From Nitrosopumilaceae archaeon (lineage in GTDB: Archaea; Thermoproteota; Nitrososphaeria; Nitrososphaerales; Nitrosopumilaceae), in the NCBI GenBank assembly GCA_965208905.1, contig OZ242365.1:192001-256000 (forward strand): a DNA stretch of 64,000 nt, in the 5' to 3' direction. Under the pieces are notes generated by a model, which was not told where the DNA came from, made no database searches, and was given only the letters and a program-made list of their open reading frames with translations. Numbering within the stretch: position 1 is the stretch's first letter; each line of letters begins with the position of its first letter. The translations under genes and the position numbers were made by a program. Shown in pieces: positions 25,687 to 60,075 of the stretch.

Positions 25687-25814
25687 AGTAAAAATATCTT
25701 TGTTGTGATTATAACTGTTAGGGTTCTGTCGCAAACGCGGTTGATACGACAAAACCCTTGTGCGTTCACTCATAAAAGTGATAAAAATATTGATGGTATA
25801 ATGAATGATACTGT

Positions 25815-46367: not shown

Positions 46368-47453
46368 ATGGTGGATAAGAGAGTACGTATCGCAGGCATA
46401 ATAGGGGCACTGGCTTTCTCTGCATGGGTACTGACATCACCATCAGATCCCCTACCCATACCAGCACCGTCTGGTGAGGGACCTGAAGACTCTGTAGTCA
46501 TATTGGCAGAAGATTTAGAGAGGCCAAGGCACATAGCTGTAATAGATGATTATGTATTTGTTACAGAGCGGGAAGGGCGTATACGATTGGTGGATAATGG
46601 GACACTACTCGAAAGGCCAGTAGCAGTACTGCGGCCTGTTGAGGACTTTGATATAGGACTCAGTGGCGTTGCAGTGCATCCAAACTATAACGAAAATGGA
46701 TTGTTATACGCATACATATCCTACAGAGAAGATGGCACACTATACAATAAAGTCATGAAGATAACGCTGGTAGAGAATAGATTGGTGGATGCCATACCAA
46801 TTATAGAGCATATACCGGGATCCCGATTCTCCAACGGTGGTGTAGTAAAGTTTGGGCCTGACGGTATGCTATACATAGGAACCGGTACACCTTCAGACTC
46901 ATCCCATCTACCTCAGGATATAGACTCGTTGGCTGGAAAGATACTGCGCATACATGATGATGGAGCCATACCAACAGATAATCCGTATAAAGATTCGCCG
47001 GTATACTCACTTGGTCATCGTAACATCAGAGGCATGGACTGGGACAGTACAGGAAGATTATACATATCCGAAGAGGGTCCTGACAAAAACGATGAGATAA
47101 GCCTCATAACACCCGGTGAAAATTATGGTTGGCCAGAGAGTGAGTGTTATGGTTCAGGTTATGCCAATGCCACAATATGTTATGATCCTGCCATAGAGCC
47201 AGGGGGCATAGCATTCTCAAATGGTGTCGCGGCTACATCAGGTCATCTGTTGTTGGCATCATTACGGGGCGGTGGGCTCTTTGAGATAGACGTAAATGAA
47301 GGTCTATCATCACAAAAAATTCTCTTAAGTGGTGTTGGACGCATTCGGGATGTGGTCCAGAGTGAAGATGGCACAATATACGTGATAACCTCAAATACAG
47401 ATGGTAAAGGATTTCCCGCCGAGAGTGATGATAGACTGCTGATGCTACGATAG
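46368..47453 (+). CDS. PQQ-dependent sugar dehydrogenase (GSDH family), membrane-anchored
   Basis: VTEREGRI, FGPDGMLYI.TG, LAGKILRI..DG.IP.DNP, GHRN, G.NYGWP, GRIRDV. Confidence 0.92.
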   Translation: MVDKRVRIAGIIGALAFSAWVLTSPSDPLPIPAPSGEGPEDSVVILAEDLERPRHIAVIDDYVFVTEREGRIRLVDNGTLLERPVAVLRPVEDFDIGLSGVAVHPNYNENGLLYAYISYREDGTLYNKVMKITLVENRLVDAIPIIEHIPGSRFSNGGVVKFGPDGMLYIGTGTPSDSSHLPQDIDSLAGKILRIHDDGAIPTDNPYKDSPVYSLGHRNIRGMDWDSTGRLYISEEGPDKNDEISLITPGENYGWPESECYGSGYANATICYDPAIEPGGIAFSNGVAATSGHLLLASLRGGGLFEIDVNEGLSSQKILLSGVGRIRDVVQSEDGTIYVITSNTDGKGFPAESDDRLLMLR

Positions 47454-47601
47454 CACAGGCCAGATGTGGTCTTGAATTATACTGGACAGTTGTAAAAGAC
47501 AACAGGTCAAGATGGCCTCCAATATCAAGGGGCGCCGGGCGCATACATTATCAGGTTCCTCCCGCAAAGTCGGGTGATGGTTGATGTGTTGTTGGATAGT
47601 G

Positions 47602-47608
47602 TTAAATA
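47602..47608 (+). promoter_or_regulatory. probable TATA box of tnpB (element 1)
   Basis: TTAAATA about 20 nt upstream of ATG 47628/47631, consistent with a leaderless archaeal mRNA. Confidence 0.45.
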
Positions 47609-47627
47609 CGTTATTAAACCGTACTAT

Positions 47628-49145
47628 ATGATGGCTCTTGTAAAAAATAGTAGGGCAATAACACGTACATACACAAAAAATTTGGGTATGCAGTACGTGT
47701 TTGAGCATGTCAGGAAGGTGGCAGAAGTGGCGTACATTATAGCAGATAACACGGGGAAGAATACCTATGGTGTTAACGCATTGATGTATCGTACAATGCG
47801 CGGCCCTGACCCCAAAGTACATTCGTCCATAACGCAGACCGCCATACGGGACGGGGTTGCCGCCCATAACACGTACAATACAAAGACTGCGCAGGGCATG
47901 AAGGTATCTGAGCCCGTGTTTCGCAATCCGGTTGTAAAGTTGAAAAACCAAAATTGGAGGCTGAATCCGATAGCGGGTGGATATATGACTATTGCAAATG
48001 TTGGCTCATCAAAACACCCACATATGATAGCAATTCCCATCTCTTCAGATGTGGTACGCCGCATAGGACAAAATGAGTTGGGCGAGTTGTGGATCACGCC
48101 GACCACATACACCATAACGTATTACAACAAAGTGCCCGAGGTTGACAAGCCCCACCCATACGGCAAGTCAGAGATTATCGAGTTGCTTACGGATGTGGGG
48201 TATGTGGGCGGCACACCAAAGGATGTAATTGGCGTAGATATCAATGAGAAGAACATCACCGTAGGAGATAAAGATACAATGGTACAGTTTGATCTATCCG
48301 ATACGATACAGGCCATTGAAGACGCAAAGACTGAGGATGCAAACAATACGTATACACGTACACATGATAATGCTGTATATGCGGCACGTACCGGAAGGCG
48401 TGTTGTATACAAGAAAGAGGAGGAGCGCAGAGAAAAACAACAAGTTGTGTGTGGCGGTCCCAAGTTACACAGCAAACTCAAACGCAGATACAGAAAACTC
48501 AAGAGGGAGGGCAAACACAAGAGGGCCGCGGAGATAAAGAAGCAGATGAATAAATGCATATTAAACATACAGCATAACCACACAAAGTCAAAGAAGAATG
48601 CTAAAAAGCGCAAGGTGGCCAAAGCCGTGCGCCATCATGAACATGTGCTGAATGTGATGGCACTATGCATCGCACAGTGGGCCGCACAGTCTGGGTGTTT
48701 GGTGGTGTTGGAGGATTTAACCCGCATATCGTATAATTGGCAGAAGGGTGGAAGGTTTGGACGTATGATGCGTCGCAGGTTATATTCTGCCATGATGCGA
48801 AAGGCATCGGATTTAATTTATGAAAAGTCCCGGTTTTTGGGAGTGGAGGCATTACATATGCGTCCACACAACACATCCAAGCTATGTGCTGCGTGCAGAA
48901 CCATACTAACTGGAACTTATCATAGAAAAGACTGCACCCGCTGCCATATAGTTGGCGTAGATCGTGACGTCAACGCAGTGGAGAATATACGGCGAACAAG
49001 TGCCGTATCCCGATATGGTCGTCAGGTTTCGGCCAGTCTGGGCGAAGTCCGTCGTGGTGTGGATGTAATCCTCGATCCCACACCACTCATACAGGGTTGC
49101 TGGAGCAACTGGGCTGACAGACTATCCCGCATAGCGGGGGTGTAA
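47628..49145 (+). CDS. tnpB: TnpB-family RNA-guided endonuclease
   Basis: RuvC-I VIGVDINEKN, RuvC-II VVLEDL, P.NTSKLCAAC...CTRC Zn finger, RuvC-III DRDVNAVENI. The ORF track start (47574) lies inside the TIR. Confidence 0.9.
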   Translation: MMALVKNSRAITRTYTKNLGMQYVFEHVRKVAEVAYIIADNTGKNTYGVNALMYRTMRGPDPKVHSSITQTAIRDGVAAHNTYNTKTAQGMKVSEPVFRNPVVKLKNQNWRLNPIAGGYMTIANVGSSKHPHMIAIPISSDVVRRIGQNELGELWITPTTYTITYYNKVPEVDKPHPYGKSEIIELLTDVGYVGGTPKDVIGVDINEKNITVGDKDTMVQFDLSDTIQAIEDAKTEDANNTYTRTHDNAVYAARTGRRVVYKKEEERREKQQVVCGGPKLHSKLKRRYRKLKREGKHKRAAEIKKQMNKCILNIQHNHTKSKKNAKKRKVAKAVRHHEHVLNVMALCIAQWAAQSGCLVVLEDLTRISYNWQKGGRFGRMMRRRLYSAMMRKASDLIYEKSRFLGVEALHMRPHNTSKLCAACRTILTGTYHRKDCTRCHIVGVDRDVNAVENIRRTSAVSRYGRQVSASLGEVRRGVDVILDPTPLIQGCWSNWADRLSRIAGV

Positions 49146-49290
49146 TCACCCGACTTTGCGGGAGGAACCCATTATCAAAGATGTTTGTAATGTATGAATG
49201 AAATTTACATATTTACAAGACCGCCATCGACCAGGCGTCAGCACACATAAAATAACAAATCTGTCATAGAGTTTTAATATAGACAAAAAA

Positions 49291-50457
49291 ATGATAAAAA
49301 GTGTGGAAAGCGTATGTGTTTTGGGTGCGGGAAGTACAAAGTATGGAAAGTTAGATGATAGCATAGTAGACATAACCGTACAGGCATCAGCAGATGCAAT
49401 AAACAGTGCAGGAATAGAGCCTGCCGACATAAAGGCCGGATACATATCCAATGTATTTGGCATAGCAGACAAACAAGTGCATCTAGGACCTGTAATTATG
49501 AGTAACCTTGGTATTTCAGACAGACCATCATTATCCATAGAGTCCGCATGTGGCAGTGGCTCTGTCTCGTTTAGGGAGGCATATGCCAATGTGGCGGCAG
49601 GATTCTACGACTGCCTATTGGTAGCAGGTACAGAGAAGGTCACCCACACCGGTACCGAATGGACTACCACGTACTTTGCATACTGCTCAGACTTCTTCCA
49701 TGAAGGGTCTGCAGGCGCATCGTTCCCAGGACTGTTTGCAGCCATGGCACGTGCCTACCTGACCGAATTTGGCGCCACCGAAGAGGACTTTGCGCAGGTT
49801 GCAGTAAAAAACCACAACAATGGAATACTCAATCCAAAGGCGCATTTGAGAAAGAAGATAACCATAGATGATGTTATGAAATCGGCCGTGGTAGCCAGTC
49901 CGCTCAAGCTGTACGACTGCTGTCCATTCTCAGACGGGGCCAGTGCCGTCATATTATGTACAGAAGAGTTTGCCAAGAAGACAGGCGGCGACTACATAAA
50001 AGTAACAGGATCCGGACGTGGAGGTTCGCCAGCAGCATTGCAGGGACGGGAGCACATTACAACAATTCCCAGTACAGTAATAGCATCAAGATCAGCCTAC
50101 AAGATGGCAGGTATAACTGCCAAAGATGTGGACTTTGCCGAAGTACATGACTGTTTTACAATAGCCGAAATAGTAGATACTGAAGATTTGGGATTCTTTG
50201 AGAAGGGTAAGGGTGTGGAAGCTGCTCGAGAAGGTAGAACCGCACTAAATTCAGACATATCAATAAACCCCTCTGGAGGTCTAAAGTCAAAGGGACATCC
50301 CATTGGTGCTACCGGTGTGGGGCAAGTAGTTGAGATGTATGATCAGTTAACAGGCCAAGCAGGTCCCCGGACCGTACATGATGCACATATAGGACTTACT
50401 CATAACTTTGGAGCCACCGGGGCCAGCTGCGCCGTCCATATCTTTGAAAGTGTTTAA
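49291..50457 (+). CDS. thiolase (acetyl-CoA C-acetyltransferase)
   Basis: ESACGSG, KNH.N...NP.A, DCCPFSDGA, EVHDCFT, NPSGGLKSKGHPIGATG. Confidence 0.95.
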   Translation: MIKSVESVCVLGAGSTKYGKLDDSIVDITVQASADAINSAGIEPADIKAGYISNVFGIADKQVHLGPVIMSNLGISDRPSLSIESACGSGSVSFREAYANVAAGFYDCLLVAGTEKVTHTGTEWTTTYFAYCSDFFHEGSAGASFPGLFAAMARAYLTEFGATEEDFAQVAVKNHNNGILNPKAHLRKKITIDDVMKSAVVASPLKLYDCCPFSDGASAVILCTEEFAKKTGGDYIKVTGSGRGGSPAALQGREHITTIPSTVIASRSAYKMAGITAKDVDFAEVHDCFTIAEIVDTEDLGFFEKGKGVEAAREGRTALNSDISINPSGGLKSKGHPIGATGVGQVVEMYDQLTGQAGPRTVHDAHIGLTHNFGATGASCAVHIFESV

Positions 50458-58604: not shown

Positions 58605-60075
58605 TGGGCTGTGACGTTATCTGCGCGTGTCCCAAGACAGCGCGTTTGACAACCCGTCGTATAGTTGAGTAGACAAATCTCCTGAATACACCGCTTAAAT
58701 ACCACCGAACTCATTGTATAATATGAAGTACAAAGACGAAAAGTACGTCATAAAGACTCTACAGTACCGTCTTAAGATATCCACCAGACTCACTCGATAC
58801 TTTAACTCAATGTATTCGGAATCCCACATATGGCTCAATGCAGGAATAAGGGCGCGTAAGGCTGGACTGACGGTGTTTGACACCAATAAGATAGCCACTA
58901 TATGCCAGACCATCCCCCAGGCCTGGGTTCGCGGCGCCATACGTGAAGGCCACAAGATAGAAGGCTGTACGCATGTAAGATATGGTAGGAAGGTTTACCC
59001 CCTGTTTAGTAACGTGCCACTCGGTAAAAAATCCAAAGGTACAACGGTGTATTTCCCAAGATGTAATATACCATTCAAACTACAGAAAGGGCATCTACCC
59101 AATACATCCCAATCATATAAGATAGTGGATGTCACGAACACTACAGACAAGGAGAGGCAGTTCGAACTACATGTAACTATACGTGAGCATGTCCCGGACC
59201 GCGTAGCGACGGGTGTACATGCTGGTATTGATATGGGTGGTAAGCACACGCTTGTTGTTGGAAAGTCCGATGGTAGTATTGCCATGCTGACATTACGTGA
59301 GAAGGATACTATACGGAACATAGCGCGTATGCAAAAGAAGATGAGTAGGTGCAAACTTCACTCCCGCAAGTGGCGCAACCTGCATGATACATTAAACAGC
59401 ATATACCGTAAGTTGGGAAATAGACAGAAAGACAAGCTGCGCAAGTTCTCAAAGAAACTAATGCGGCAGTGTGATAGAATAATCATGGAGGGGATGAACC
59501 TCCGTACAATGACGACCAAGGGTCCCGGGCAGACGCCCAAAAATCGTACGATGCGACAAAGTCATTGTGGTGAGGCGCGGGAGCACATTTCACAACAATA
59601 CCTACGATATAATGTAGAATATACGGAGATAAACCCAAAGAATACCTCAAAGCAGTGCTGTATGTGCGGTAGTTTGAATACGTGGCGCAAGAGCAGTAAG
59701 TTTAGGTGTCATAACTGCGGTATAGTGTGTCATGCGGACATCAATGCGGCATTCAACATACTTTTCGCTTTTCGTATTATACAGTGGAGTAAGCGCGCTC
59801 AGGGCGTTTATTCCCTACAAAACAAGGCTGGAATGGTCTTGAGAGGAAAGATACATCTCGCGACACTTACTATACCCAGTGTCGTTGGTGATGTGATGGC
59901 CGGTACAGGCTGTCACCAGGCTAGGCGTCAAAACCCGGCTGACAATGAACGTCTCTTGGAAACTCCTCTGGATGGTAATTTGCCAACATTTGTTGTACTG
60001 GGCGCAGGCCCAACTGTATAGCAGCTGTATTGAGTACGCGCATGTATGGACACGCGCAGATAACGTCACAGCCCA
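58605..60075. mobile_element. 1471-bp non-autonomous TIR element carrying only tnpB
   Basis: Perfect 28-bp TIR TGGGCTGTGACGTTATCTGCGCGTGTCC (58605-32 / 60048-75); 8-bp TSD CTTAGTCA (58597-604) vs CTTGGTCA (60076-83), one mismatch. Confidence 0.9.
58723..60021 (+). CDS. tnpB: TnpB-family RNA-guided endonuclease
   Basis: KTLQYRL N-terminus, RuvC-I AGIDMG, RuvC-II IIMEGMN, INPKNTSKQCCMCG...FRCHNCG, RuvC-III HADINAAFNI; CTTAAATA box at 58694-58701. Confidence 0.93.
   Translation: MKYKDEKYVIKTLQYRLKISTRLTRYFNSMYSESHIWLNAGIRARKAGLTVFDTNKIATICQTIPQAWVRGAIREGHKIEGCTHVRYGRKVYPLFSNVPLGKKSKGTTVYFPRCNIPFKLQKGHLPNTSQSYKIVDVTNTTDKERQFELHVTIREHVPDRVATGVHAGIDMGGKHTLVVGKSDGSIAMLTLREKDTIRNIARMQKKMSRCKLHSRKWRNLHDTLNSIYRKLGNRQKDKLRKFSKKLMRQCDRIIMEGMNLRTMTTKGPGQTPKNRTMRQSHCGEAREHISQQYLRYNVEYTEINPKNTSKQCCMCGSLNTWRKSSKFRCHNCGIVCHADINAAFNILFAFRIIQWSKRAQGVYSLQNKAGMVLRGKIHLATLTIPSVVGDVMAGTGCHQARRQNPADNERLLETPLDGNLPTFVVLGAGPTV

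Follow-up and report, generated by a model that had tools for sequence, protein, structure and literature searches.

A tnpB gene in the genome of a sponge-associated Nitrosopumilaceae archaeon raises the question of what kind of element carries it and which enzyme moves that element. It was found in 64,000 nt of contig OZ242365.1 (positions 192,001-256,000; assembly GCA_965208905.1), the stretch referred to here as the window, where it lies alone between perfect inverted repeats that are themselves flanked by a short direct repeat. The original prediction took IS200/IS605 and IS607 elements, which make neither kind of repeat, as the normal vehicles of prokaryotic tnpB. As an exclusive rule, this premise is out of date, as DDE-associated TnpBs with inverted terminal repeats, together with solo TnpBs having the same ends, were reported in 2023 (PMC10691335). 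The best overall explanation of the locus, which we consider probable, is a non-autonomous insertion sequence with the ends of archaeal IS6-like DDE elements and a divergent tnpB as its sole gene. Two layers have to be distinguished in this explanation: that the element is an IS6-like TnpB carrier mobilised in trans is very probable, while for an active TnpB/omega-RNA whose TTA-type TAM explains the sequence motif found in the flanks the chances seem evenly balanced.

The tnpB unit (47554-49169) measures 1616 bp by inspection of the sequence and by a repeat finder, its two 25-nt arms, GGTTCCTCCCGCAAAGTCGGGTGAT, being 100% complementary, and the 8-bp sequence CATTATCA is present on both sides of it (Table 1). 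When the 25-mer end was searched with up to three mismatches, exactly two matches were obtained in the window, against a mean of 0.00 in 100 shuffles, none of which gave two or more; the perfect inverted and direct repeats first described from the sequence alone are thus confirmed. The sole long ORF of the unit encodes 523 aa when read from a GTG, although alignment with homologues suggests that the true start is a downstream pair of ATG codons. As originally noted, the stop codon of tnpB overlaps the right repeat, by a single base: the TAA ends at 49145, where the inner edge of the right arm lies. The absence of an internal transposase was also borne out, tnpB being the only gene and the ORF list of the unit holding no further ORF of 200 aa or more.

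Table 1. Features of the tnpB element and its flanks (positions in the window)
Feature	Position	Strand	Basis or remark
Flank motif ATA (TA at -2/-1), candidate TAM	47543..47545	+	Directly 5' of the left duplication; recurs in F1 flanks
Left 8-bp target-site duplication, CATTATCA	47546..47553	.	Single-copy in the G005 empty site
Left terminal inverted repeat, IS6-like, begins GGTTC	47554..47578	+	Repeat finder, end-match searches
tnpB ORF, 523 aa from GTG; probable start ATG 47628/47631	47574..49145	+	ORFs, alignment, fold search
Putative omega-RNA region, spanning the tnpB 3' end and right repeat	48770..49169	+	Conservation; extent inferred
Right terminal inverted repeat	49145..49169	-	Repeat finder, end-match searches
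Right 8-bp target-site duplication, CATTATCA	49170..49177	.	With an outward-reading omega-RNA, would make up guide positions 1-8

The element is one member of a multi-copy mobile family, named F1, whose insertion makes an 8-bp duplication (F2 and C0 are other TnpB families of the same genome). With up to three mismatches, its end has 35 matches in the window's genome (G000) and none when the reversed sequence is used as a control. This genome contains 12 full-length F1 units of 1608-1644 bp, nine of which retain an intact ORF of at least 518 aa, and two deletion derivatives of 585 and 496 bp. The further copies with duplications of their own, to which the original prediction looked, do exist: the 8-bp duplications are perfect and mutually different at 8/12 full-length copies, and perfect at both derivatives. 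Of the remaining copies, one has a 9-bp duplication with one mismatch and 3/12 have none, and a comparison by eye of the flanks of these three revealed no reciprocal matches that could identify partners of recombination or inversion. The predicted empty site was likewise present in the sister species G005, in which flanks 92-96% identical to those of the window are joined at a single CATTATCA. The claim that the insertion is recent stands in so far as it postdates the split from G005; however, the mean pairwise identity of the aligned F1 copies, 0.885, argues against a fresh burst.

As regards the ends, the published consensus for IS6/IS26 is GGTTCTGTTGCAAA (PMC6807381). In related genomes, the F1-like and F2-like tnpB elements, as well as miniature elements, read GGTTCTATTGCAAA or GGTTCTGTTGCAAA, matching 13-14 of the 14 consensus bases. 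The end of the window's copy reads GGTTCCTCCCGCAAAG and deviates in its spacer: GGTTC and GCAAA are kept, G7 is missing and the C-rich spacer has one additional nucleotide. The IS6-type character originally assigned to these ends is supported by the sequences of the relatives. The F1 end extends over at least 25 nt and has a second conserved block, GTGATGG. The end pattern was found in seven of the ten genus genomes searched, G000 included; outside the genus, among 301 family genomes, it gave single matches in five genomes from two other genera, compared with four single matches for the reversed control. F1 ends belong to the end family of this genus's IS6-like DDE elements, it being noted that archaeal 'IS6' elements are only distantly related to IS26 and that their mechanism has never been tested (PMC6807381).

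A profile search gave 75 TNB-domain (TnpB) matches in the window's genome. Its tnpB genes, about 70 in number, fall into eight families, and inverted ends are present in at least six of these. The same genome has 13 matches over the cut-off to DDE_Tnp_IS240, and four of these IS6-like DDE genes sit in inverted-repeat transposons of 3.4-3.7 kb, two of which carry 8-bp duplications (GAATTTTT and GTCAATAC). The ends of these transposons and those of F1 have GG(T/A)(T/A)C ... GTGATGG in common. Around all 13 genes, clear ends could be recognised for the four, none of them exactly equal to those of F1, and neither the window's genome nor G005 yielded an intact DDE element whose ends are exactly those of F1; present-day mobilisation of F1 may be over in both. 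In the second sister species, G009, an intact 402-aa DDE ORF occupies a 1746-bp element, one end of which matches an end of that genome's F1-like tnpB element in 24/24 bases, both elements having 9-bp duplications. In the further relative G001, a frameshifted DDE element has a 24-25-nt end equal to that of the G005 tnpB elements, and in the window's own genome a DDE pseudogene (G000:926302-927837) has F1/F2-type ends on both sides; counting G006, another relative, DDE remnants with such ends occur in three genomes. The DDE transposase with matching ends that the original prediction called for is thus intact in G009 and decayed in G000, and these shared ends support the view that the element is of IS6 type, non-autonomous, and carries nothing but TnpB.

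The partner proteins, of about 400 aa, contain a SWIM zinc finger, a zinc ribbon and a DDE_Tnp_IS240 core. Among the loci inspected in the window's genome and four relatives, no element holding both a DDE gene and tnpB was found; each of the two genes was in an element of its own, with ends common to both. The 8-mer GTCCGTTG recurs on the outer flanks of two identical, directly oriented 3602-bp DDE transposons, a hint of copy-in cointegrate transposition. Two rve-type elements with high activity, one of 1044 bp (15 copies) and one of 1056 bp (seven copies), were also considered as mobilisers and rejected, because their ends (TGTATTATGTCG...) are unrelated and their duplications measure about 14-16 bp.

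On sequence evidence, the gene itself belongs to tnpB, although divergent, and its catalytic site is intact. An exhaustive protein search among 1.84 billion sequences returned only 17 representatives at E <=1e-30. In the alignment of 17 homologues, which reach down to 37% identity, the RuvC residues D222, E380 and D465 are invariant (17/17), the last within R464-D465-V466-N467-A468; in the zinc finger, a CxxC...CxxC falling between RuvC-II and RuvC-III, C438, C441 and C454 show no variation, while C457 is kept in at least 90%. Both sites are therefore as intact as initially read. The sole Pfam match is Cas12f1-like_TNB (PF07282; E 2e-6, 28.3 bits against a cut-off of 26.3). A structure model of moderate quality (pLDDT 66.8, pTM 0.42), compared with the PDB by Foldseek, had Cas12f/TnpB chains as best matches (E 1.6e-13 to 5e-7; the top 14 listed, to 1.4e-7, with probability 1.0), with TM-scores of 0.2-0.3. 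The N-terminal half of F1 TnpB is lineage-specific. A scan of JGI metagenomes with the F1 protein alignment gave no F1-family member and 16 loci, all of them distant TnpBs matching the alignment in the RuvC/zinc-finger part only.

The flanks of the elements contain a further regularity. In 14/14 F1 left flanks of the window's genome, next to the 5' end of tnpB, the dinucleotide TA precedes the left repeat by 8 nt (once by 9 nt), and it is followed by C in 10/14, or in nine out of ten elements with a perfect 8-bp duplication. In G005, TTA is directly 5' of the duplication in all four F1-like copies inspected. On the right flank, the mirror position has TA in only 1/7 G000 copies and 0/4 G005 copies. 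The motif tracks the TnpB family and not the ends, since F2, with ends nearly the same as those of F1, has TT in 7/7 flanks and TTG in 5/7, and the motif of C0 is A..G. This one-sided TA/TTA motif looks like a TAM.

Several observations concern the putative omega-RNA. Element positions 1466-1565 are the most conserved part among copies (0.964 identity), third-codon identity is 0.895 in the tnpB 3' region versus 0.83-0.86 elsewhere, and this region is kept in both short F1 derivatives. Its fold z-score is only -1.94, no Rfam match was obtained for it, and the F1 copies are so nearly identical there that they offer no covariation to analyse. Public contigs on 46900-49800 came from three DNA runs and one RNA run of four studies. 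RNA contigs cover 16 of 30 bins, mostly at the tnpB 3' end (mainly 48768-49145) and in the neighbouring thiolase gene, although such contigs are no proof of transcription and cannot show RNA ends. In one DNA contig, an internal deletion of 1143 bp joins 47948 to 49092. Since the repeat interrupts assembly, no public contig reaches 31 nt or more across a junction or passes through an empty site; on occupancy the contigs are silent.

Taking these data together, the following process is proposed. An IS6-like transposase with a SWIM zinc finger, a zinc ribbon and a DDE_Tnp_IS240 core, supplied in trans, would bind the GGTTC...GTGAT(G) ends and insert the tnpB element; if it acts like IS26, this would occur by copy-in formation of a cointegrate, followed by its resolution. 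If TnpB works as in other OMEGA modules, an omega-RNA made from the tnpB 3' end together with the right repeat would continue into the flank, so that its guide would consist of the 8-bp duplication and the DNA that follows. Unoccupied alleles having TTA or ATA directly 5' of the guide-matched sequence would then be cut by TnpB, and this cutting would favour retention or copying of the element.

It could be argued that the carrier is the same, with TnpB being an inert or otherwise employed passenger, so that TA/TTA would only reflect a target preference of the transposase or AT-rich intergenic DNA. AT-rich targets are often preferred by DDE transposases, the flank samples are small (14 and 4), the duplication of the single F1-like copy of G009 is preceded by GCA or CAC instead of TTA, and the omega-RNA is only putative, given the fold score and Rfam result of its region. 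However, a symmetric transposase dimer should leave the self-complementary TA on both sides, and the motif is confined to one; it goes with the TnpB family (TTG in F2, A..G in C0) and not with the ends; the catalytic residues are invariant among 17 homologues as distant as 37% identity; and the ORF is intact in 9/12 F1 units. For these reasons, the passenger reading appears unlikely.

The abutment of a family-specific, one-sided motif on the duplication, with TTA/ATA in F1, TTG in F2 and A..G in C0 despite nearly the same ends, would also be explained if TnpB steered insertion: bound to its TAM, with or without omega-RNA, it would recruit or orient the DDE transposase, and integration would take place immediately 3' of the TAM. 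We consider such steering distinctly improbable.

A further reading makes the element autonomous, the TnpB-like nuclease, with its RNase-H-fold D-E-D site, being itself the transposase that recognises the inverted ends and makes the 8-bp duplication. Autonomous insertion sequences classically have such a layout, with a single ORF filling an element that has inverted ends and flanking duplications; end sequences differ from one TnpB family to the next; and no intact DDE gene with the same ends was found in the window's genome or G005. Nevertheless, the DDE_Tnp_IS240 element of G009 and the DDE remnants of G001, G006 and G000 share such ends with tnpB elements, and ORF-less miniature elements of 112-132 bp bear ends of the same kind, the one with inspected flanks, in G000, having an 8-bp duplication; besides, the ends, as read in the relatives, match the IS6/IS26 consensus, and the duplication is as long as that of the genome's DDE transposons. 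To our knowledge, DNA transposition has never been shown for any TnpB, and this reading is highly improbable.

Finally, an ordinary IS1341-type (IS200/IS605 or IS607) tnpB-only element with coincidental or nested repeats, as might be thought because most solo tnpB genes are IS1341-type (PMC10691335) and the upstream TTA|C resembles the IS608 target TTAC (PMC13565253), is refuted by the different duplications that recur with the ends at different targets in 8/12 full copies and by the G005 empty site, which shows a true duplication, and has practically no probability left, the 99.6%-complete, single-contig genome having 0 matches to Y1_Tnp (PF01797; control genomes responded) and 0 to Resolvase (PF00239, serine TnpA; 12/14 control genomes responded), and the repeat not being a palindromic hairpin in the same orientation at both ends.

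The IS6-like, trans-mobilised TnpB carrier preferred here has its closest known counterparts in the DDE-1 to DDE-6 TnpBs (Altae-Tran et al. 2023, PMC10691335). In both cases, a prokaryotic TnpB lies inside an inverted-repeat transposon without IS605/IS607 ends, the tnpB 3' end is close to the transposon end, and the ends of solo tnpB elements equal those of transposase-bearing copies, implying mobilisation in trans. The DDE-linked partners named in a 2026 review are ISL2, IS630 and IS1031 (PMC13565253), while the proposed partner here is IS6-like (DDE_Tnp_IS240) and makes 8-bp duplications; moreover, in the loci inspected, the DDE gene and tnpB are in separate elements with shared ends, and at least six of eight TnpB families have inverted ends in a genome without Y1 or serine TnpA. 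The novelty originally claimed is accordingly reduced, as pairings of TnpB with DDE elements have been published (PMC10691335, PMC13565253), and what appears to be new is the IS6-like partner: IS6 is not among the partners named in the review, although the 2023 study may list such archaeal TnpBs under a DDE branch in its supplements.

With IS6/IS26 (Harmer and Hall 2019, PMC6807381), the family shares ends starting with GG, which fit 13-14/14 consensus positions in the relatives, and the 8-bp duplication, and the DDE_Tnp_IS240 core of the partner has N-terminal zinc-binding extensions like those of the long clade VII/VIII archaeal 'IS6' transposases. Unlike IS6/IS26, F1 has no internal transposase and tnpB as cargo, an end of at least 25 nt with the GTGATGG block and a C-rich spacer longer by 1 nt, and partner proteins of about 400 aa with a SWIM finger. 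A eukaryotic parallel is Fanzor1 (Bao and Jurka 2013, PMC3627910; PMC13565253), a TnpB homologue found, often in non-autonomous copies, on DDE transposons that end in inverted repeats and duplicate their target. The review assigns the 5' duplication of Fanzor1 to its TAM and the 3' duplication to the scaffold of the omega-RNA (PMC13565253), whereas the F1 motif is just outside the 8-bp duplication, which would start the guide-matched target; in addition, the host of F1 is prokaryotic and its protein has a typical DRDxN RuvC-III motif. IS200/IS605 elements have neither inverted ends nor duplications and need a Y1 TnpA (PMC13565253), and F1 departs from them on all three counts. Like the IS1341 group, F1 is a lone tnpB of roughly 1.3-1.6 kb with many copies per archaeal genome and no internal transposase. 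It differs from IS607, which uses a serine-recombinase TnpA and lacks inverted ends and duplications, in having both kinds of repeat, in a genome with no PF00239 match.

TnpB is thought to persist by repairing the loss of scarlessly excising IS605/IS607 elements. This standard rationale, the restoration of an excised donor site, is not directly applicable to a copy-in transposon because such a transposon does not excise. The role of TnpB for a DDE transposon has been raised explicitly as a question in a 2026 review (PMC13565253), and this genus is an apparent natural test case for it, the window's genome having about 70 tnpB genes, no Y1 or serine TnpA, and an IS6-type transposase that, if IS26-like, copies in and never excises. 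In annotation practice, tnpB-only genes cannot safely be assumed to be IS605-type, nor can this be assumed when omega-RNAs and guide boundaries are predicted. The one-sided motif, specific for each TnpB family, amounts to a concrete TAM prediction, and bears on the choice between a nuclease that filters the insertion sites of a DDE transposon and one that steers them; if steering were true, an OMEGA nuclease and a DDE transposase would be coupled in a minimal way that is independent of CAST.

The 1616-bp tnpB element of the window, a member of the family called F1 in this analysis, is flanked on the outer side of both inverted arms by CATTATCA as a direct repeat, and the innermost base of its right arm is the last base of the tnpB stop codon. 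The 25-mer arm, allowing up to 3 mismatches, was found at just two sites in the window; two matches did not occur in any of 100 shuffles. Thus, sequence and repeat finding bear out everything that the original prediction had described (arms, flanking repeats, single tnpB ORF, overlap of stop codon and right arm), and its reading as a non-autonomous DDE-type element, possibly IS6-mobilised, with TnpB as cargo, has been supported. Alignment with homologues suggests that translation would start at the ATG pair 47628/47631.

In the window's own genome (G000), 35 matches to the F1 end (up to 3 mismatches; 19 forward, 16 reverse, with none for the reversed-pattern control) resolve into 12 full-length units, each 1608-1644 bp long. 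The ORF is intact (at least 518 aa) in nine of these, carries in-frame stops in one and is split in two. The further copies with different 8-bp duplications that had been predicted were found: perfect direct repeats surround 8 of the 12 units, differing from unit to unit, and also surround two derivatives with internal deletions, which retain the 3' 430-490 nt. Of the other four units, one is flanked by a 9-bp repeat that contains one mismatch, and three lack a duplication. An empty site, also anticipated and the decisive evidence, is present in the sister species G005, where matches to the left flank (up to window position 47553) and to the right flank (from 49170 on) overlap by 8 bp on the contig, resulting in ...gcgcatgCATTATCAaagatg... 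with one copy of CATTATCA. This places the window insertion later than the split from the G005 lineage, and to that extent the proposed recent insertion holds; the mean pairwise identity of aligned F1 copies (0.885) indicates that the family is no very recent burst.

Coordinates of the elements discussed
Feature	Location	Size	Remarks
F1 element, left inverted arm	window 47554-47578	25 nt	fully complementary to right arm
F1 element, right inverted arm	window 49145-49169	25 nt	fully complementary to left arm
F1 element, tnpB ORF	window 47574-49145		single ORF filling the unit
8-bp duplications of eight F1 units	G000		CTGATTTT, CATTATCA, AGTAGCGG, TTCAGATG, TGTATTTA, TAGTTCTG, ACACTTAG, TACACCTG
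F1 deletion derivative	G000:999540-1000124	585 bp	both ends, perfect duplication
F1 deletion derivative	G000:626859-627354	496 bp	both ends, perfect duplication
Second tnpB-only element	window 58605-60075		perfect 28-bp inverted repeat TGGGCTGTGACGTTATCTGCGCGTGTCC
tnpB ORF of second element	window 58714-60021	435 aa	TnpB family cluster 1
IS6-like cargo transposons	G000:18695-22054, 157876-161563, 1130912-1134320, 1337692-1341293
DDE element	G009:2072318-2074063	1746 bp	ends GGTTCCGTTGCAAAGTCGGTTGAT and GGTTCTATTGCAAAGTCGGTTGAT; 9-bp duplication
F1-like tnpB element	G009:980521-982422		ends GGTTCTATTGCAAAGTCGGTTGAT and GGTTCTCTTACAAAGTCGGTTGAT; 9-bp duplication
Decayed DDE element	G000:926302-927837	1536 bp	F1/F2-type ends GGTTCCTCCCGCAAGGACGGGTGGT and GGTTCCTCCCGCAAAGTCGGGCGGT

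In a Pfam search of the window protein, the TnpB/Cas12f zinc-finger domain (TNB) was the sole match, barely over the cut-off. The catalytic residues and zinc finger, claimed to be intact, are so according to an alignment of the protein with 16 homologues (lowest identity 37%), in which D222, E380, R464-D465-V466-N467-A468 and the cysteines C438, C441 and C454 are invariant in 17/17 sequences and C457 nearly so. The structure model obtained from this alignment is moderate (pLDDT 66.8), and in the PDB it is matched best by chains of Cas12f and TnpB (E from 1.6e-13 to ~1e-7). This is a rare family: among 1.84 billion representatives, searched exhaustively, there were 17 proteins at E <=1e-30 and 129 weaker matches, most covering only residues ~320-480. 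Near-identical proteins carry the NCBI label of a Cenarchaeum sp. metagenome-assembled genome, and the DNA is present in sponge and marine metagenome runs from 11 studies, so that the host is a sponge-associated ammonia-oxidising archaeon; its genome is a single contig of 2.21 Mb with 45.6% G+C.

F1 is one of at least six families with inverted ends among the eight into which the 75 TNB matches of G000 fall, and target duplications were found in all four families checked (F1, F2, C0 and that of the window's second element). F2 elements (1514 bp, with a canonical OrfB_IS605 plus TNB TnpB), whose ends are closely related to those of F1, show them in 7/9 pairs; C0 elements (about 1.47 kb; the cluster holds 16 tnpB ORFs) combine the ends GGGAATTATATACAAAAGTACACA with 8-bp duplications; and the window's second tnpB-only element is flanked by CTTAGTCA/CTTGGTCA, 7/8 identical, and resembles in its ends an IS6-like cargo transposon, the one at G000:1130912 (GGGGCTGTTAAG...). 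Families 5 and 6, too, are bounded by their own inverted ends.

With regard to the mobiliser, neither the Y1 TnpA family nor serine recombinases, the usual partners in IS200/IS605 and IS607, had matches in G000, in searches to which control genomes responded. Membership of F1 in either group was tested and rejected, since inverted ends and duplications, both present in the window element, are lacking in these groups. Two highly active rve-type elements were ruled out by their unrelated ends and duplications of ~14-16 bp. Among the insertion sequences of G000, those of 1044 bp (15 copies, e.g. 319634-320677), 1056 bp (a relative of the former, 7 copies) and 1248 bp (12 copies, e.g. 1099447-1100695) have copies 99.7-100% identical and have been very recently active; the 1044-bp transposase looks rve-like by eye, with unusually long target duplications (~14-16 bp), and one copy interrupts an F2 tnpB element at G000:805876-808440.

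G000 also encodes 13 genes with the IS6-type transposase core (DDE_Tnp_IS240), of ~360-500 aa each; in those inspected, the core is preceded by a SWIM finger and a zinc ribbon. Four of the 13 belong to transposons of 3.4-3.7 kb, bounded by 23- to 50-nt inverted repeats and carrying restriction-modification genes: each combines a SWIM-finger DDE transposase with a DNA methyltransferase, and three carry a further ORF, perhaps the nuclease. Within their repeats, the block CTGTCAAA..TGTGTGATGG is doubled. Duplications of 8 bp (GAATTTTT and GTCAATAC) flank two of the four, whose ends are GGTTCTGTCAAGATAGCGTGTGATGG and GGAACTGTCAAAAACTTGTGTGATGG; cargo transposon ends and the F1 end GGTTCCTCCCGCAAAGTCGGGTGATGG share one layout, GG(T/A)(T/A)C, 14-15 nt, GTGATGG. 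The F1 copy at G000:161568-163066 is 5' truncated exactly at the end of one cargo transposon (157876-161563), so the two element types nest. Another cargo transposon, of 3602 bp (1337692-1341293), has a 100% identical copy in direct orientation 514 kb away (1851328-1854929), and GTCCGTTG is common to the left flank of the former and the right flank of the latter, an arrangement such as an IS26-style cointegrate, or some related rearrangement, would be expected to leave.

The end pattern was searched in 301 genomes of the family, including 10 of the genus. Multiple matches appeared in 7 of these 10 (G000 included) and single ones in five genomes of two other genera (among them G243, flagged as unpublished, on which no further result depends); the reversed control gave four single matches across the 301 genomes. 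The predicted DDE transposase with the same ends was found intact, as the clearest case, in G009, of the same genus, as a 402-aa ORF with DDE_Tnp_IS240 over cut-off, and one end of this element is identical in 24/24 bases to one end of an F1-like tnpB element of that genome (protein identity 39-41%). In G000 its counterpart is decayed, the IS6-like gene containing stops and being distributed over three frames. A 1345-bp element of G001 with ends (A)GGTTCTCTCGAAAATACGGTTGATG encodes, in frameshifted form, a homologue of the DDE protein of G000 (E 5e-19 and 2e-11), and G006 has a copy interrupted by an IS66 insertion. The same GGTTCTCTCGAAAATACGGTTGATG end bounds the F1-like tnpB elements of G005, where the four copies read are each flanked by an 8-bp duplication (perfect in three, with one mismatch in the fourth). 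Miniature elements of 112-132 bp without ORF have the same kind of ends in G000 and G005. A solitary end, GGTTCTGTCGCAAACGCGGTTGAT, lies at window 25722-25745, its inverted partner being absent within 6 kb; this end forms a ~112-bp miniature element at G000:1167871, with the 8-bp duplication CCTAGACG. In G007 (same genus, 210 contigs), the F1-type end GGTTCCTCCCGCAAAGACGGGTGAT makes up 22 of 28 end-pattern matches, many only 52-77 nt from contig ends, so that the assembly is evidently broken by a high-copy element with such ends; the assembled contigs gave no DDE_Tnp_IS240 match.

The ends in this genus agree at 13-14 of 14 positions with the IS6/IS26 consensus GGTTCTGTTGCAAA, associated with 8-bp duplications (PMC6807381); according to the same paper, the relationship of archaeal 'IS6' elements to IS26 is only distant, and they are experimentally untested. 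The premise that prokaryotic tnpB travels solely on IS200/IS605 or IS607 does not stand, because six DDE-associated TnpB branches have been published, each of them with inverted terminal repeats, along with solo TnpBs whose ends are the same (Altae-Tran et al. 2023, PMC10691335); a 2026 review (PMC13565253) names ISL2, IS630 and IS1031 as the DDE partners. Thus, TnpB in DDE transposons is already known, and what differs here is the probable IS6-type partner. Neither such a partner nor a TAM (the flank motif for TnpB target choice) abutting an 8-bp duplication was found in the portions of the literature covered, and either may overlap with the supplements of PMC10691335.

F1 copies were oriented by tnpB before their flanks were compared. 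TA lies directly upstream of the left duplication in all ten elements with perfect 8-bp duplications, nine of which have C as first duplicated base, and at equal distance from the end in the three duplication-less copies and the 9-bp-repeat copy (14/14 in total); in G005, TTA occupies this place in 4/4 F1-like copies read. On the other side, at the corresponding position just past the right duplication, TA was found in 1/7 G000 and 0/4 G005 copies; TA being self-reverse-complementary, a symmetric transposase preference should appear on both sides. F2, with nearly the same ends, has TT upstream in 7/7 copies and TTG in 5/7, and in most C0 copies position -4 is A and position -1 is G; the single F1-like copy of G009 is an exception to the TA/TTA motif. 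Hence the motif tracks the TnpB family and its orientation, which would be TAM behaviour if the right flank supplies the guide. The empty allele would then present the TAM, a single 8-bp target and the right flank, equal to the guide, and in the occupied allele the match to the guide would be limited to 8 nt. We infer a TAM with a guide from the right flank, with weak hints from 3' conservation and folding: conservation of F1 is highest over the last ~150 nt of the ORF plus the end (0.964 identity), third-codon identity is 0.895 in the 3' part versus 0.83-0.86 elsewhere, and the fold z-score of the 3' region, which had no match in Rfam, is -1.94.

The feature most worth experiment is this polar flank motif, differing between TnpB families, which suggests that the nuclease filters, or conceivably steers, where an IS6-like transposon persists.
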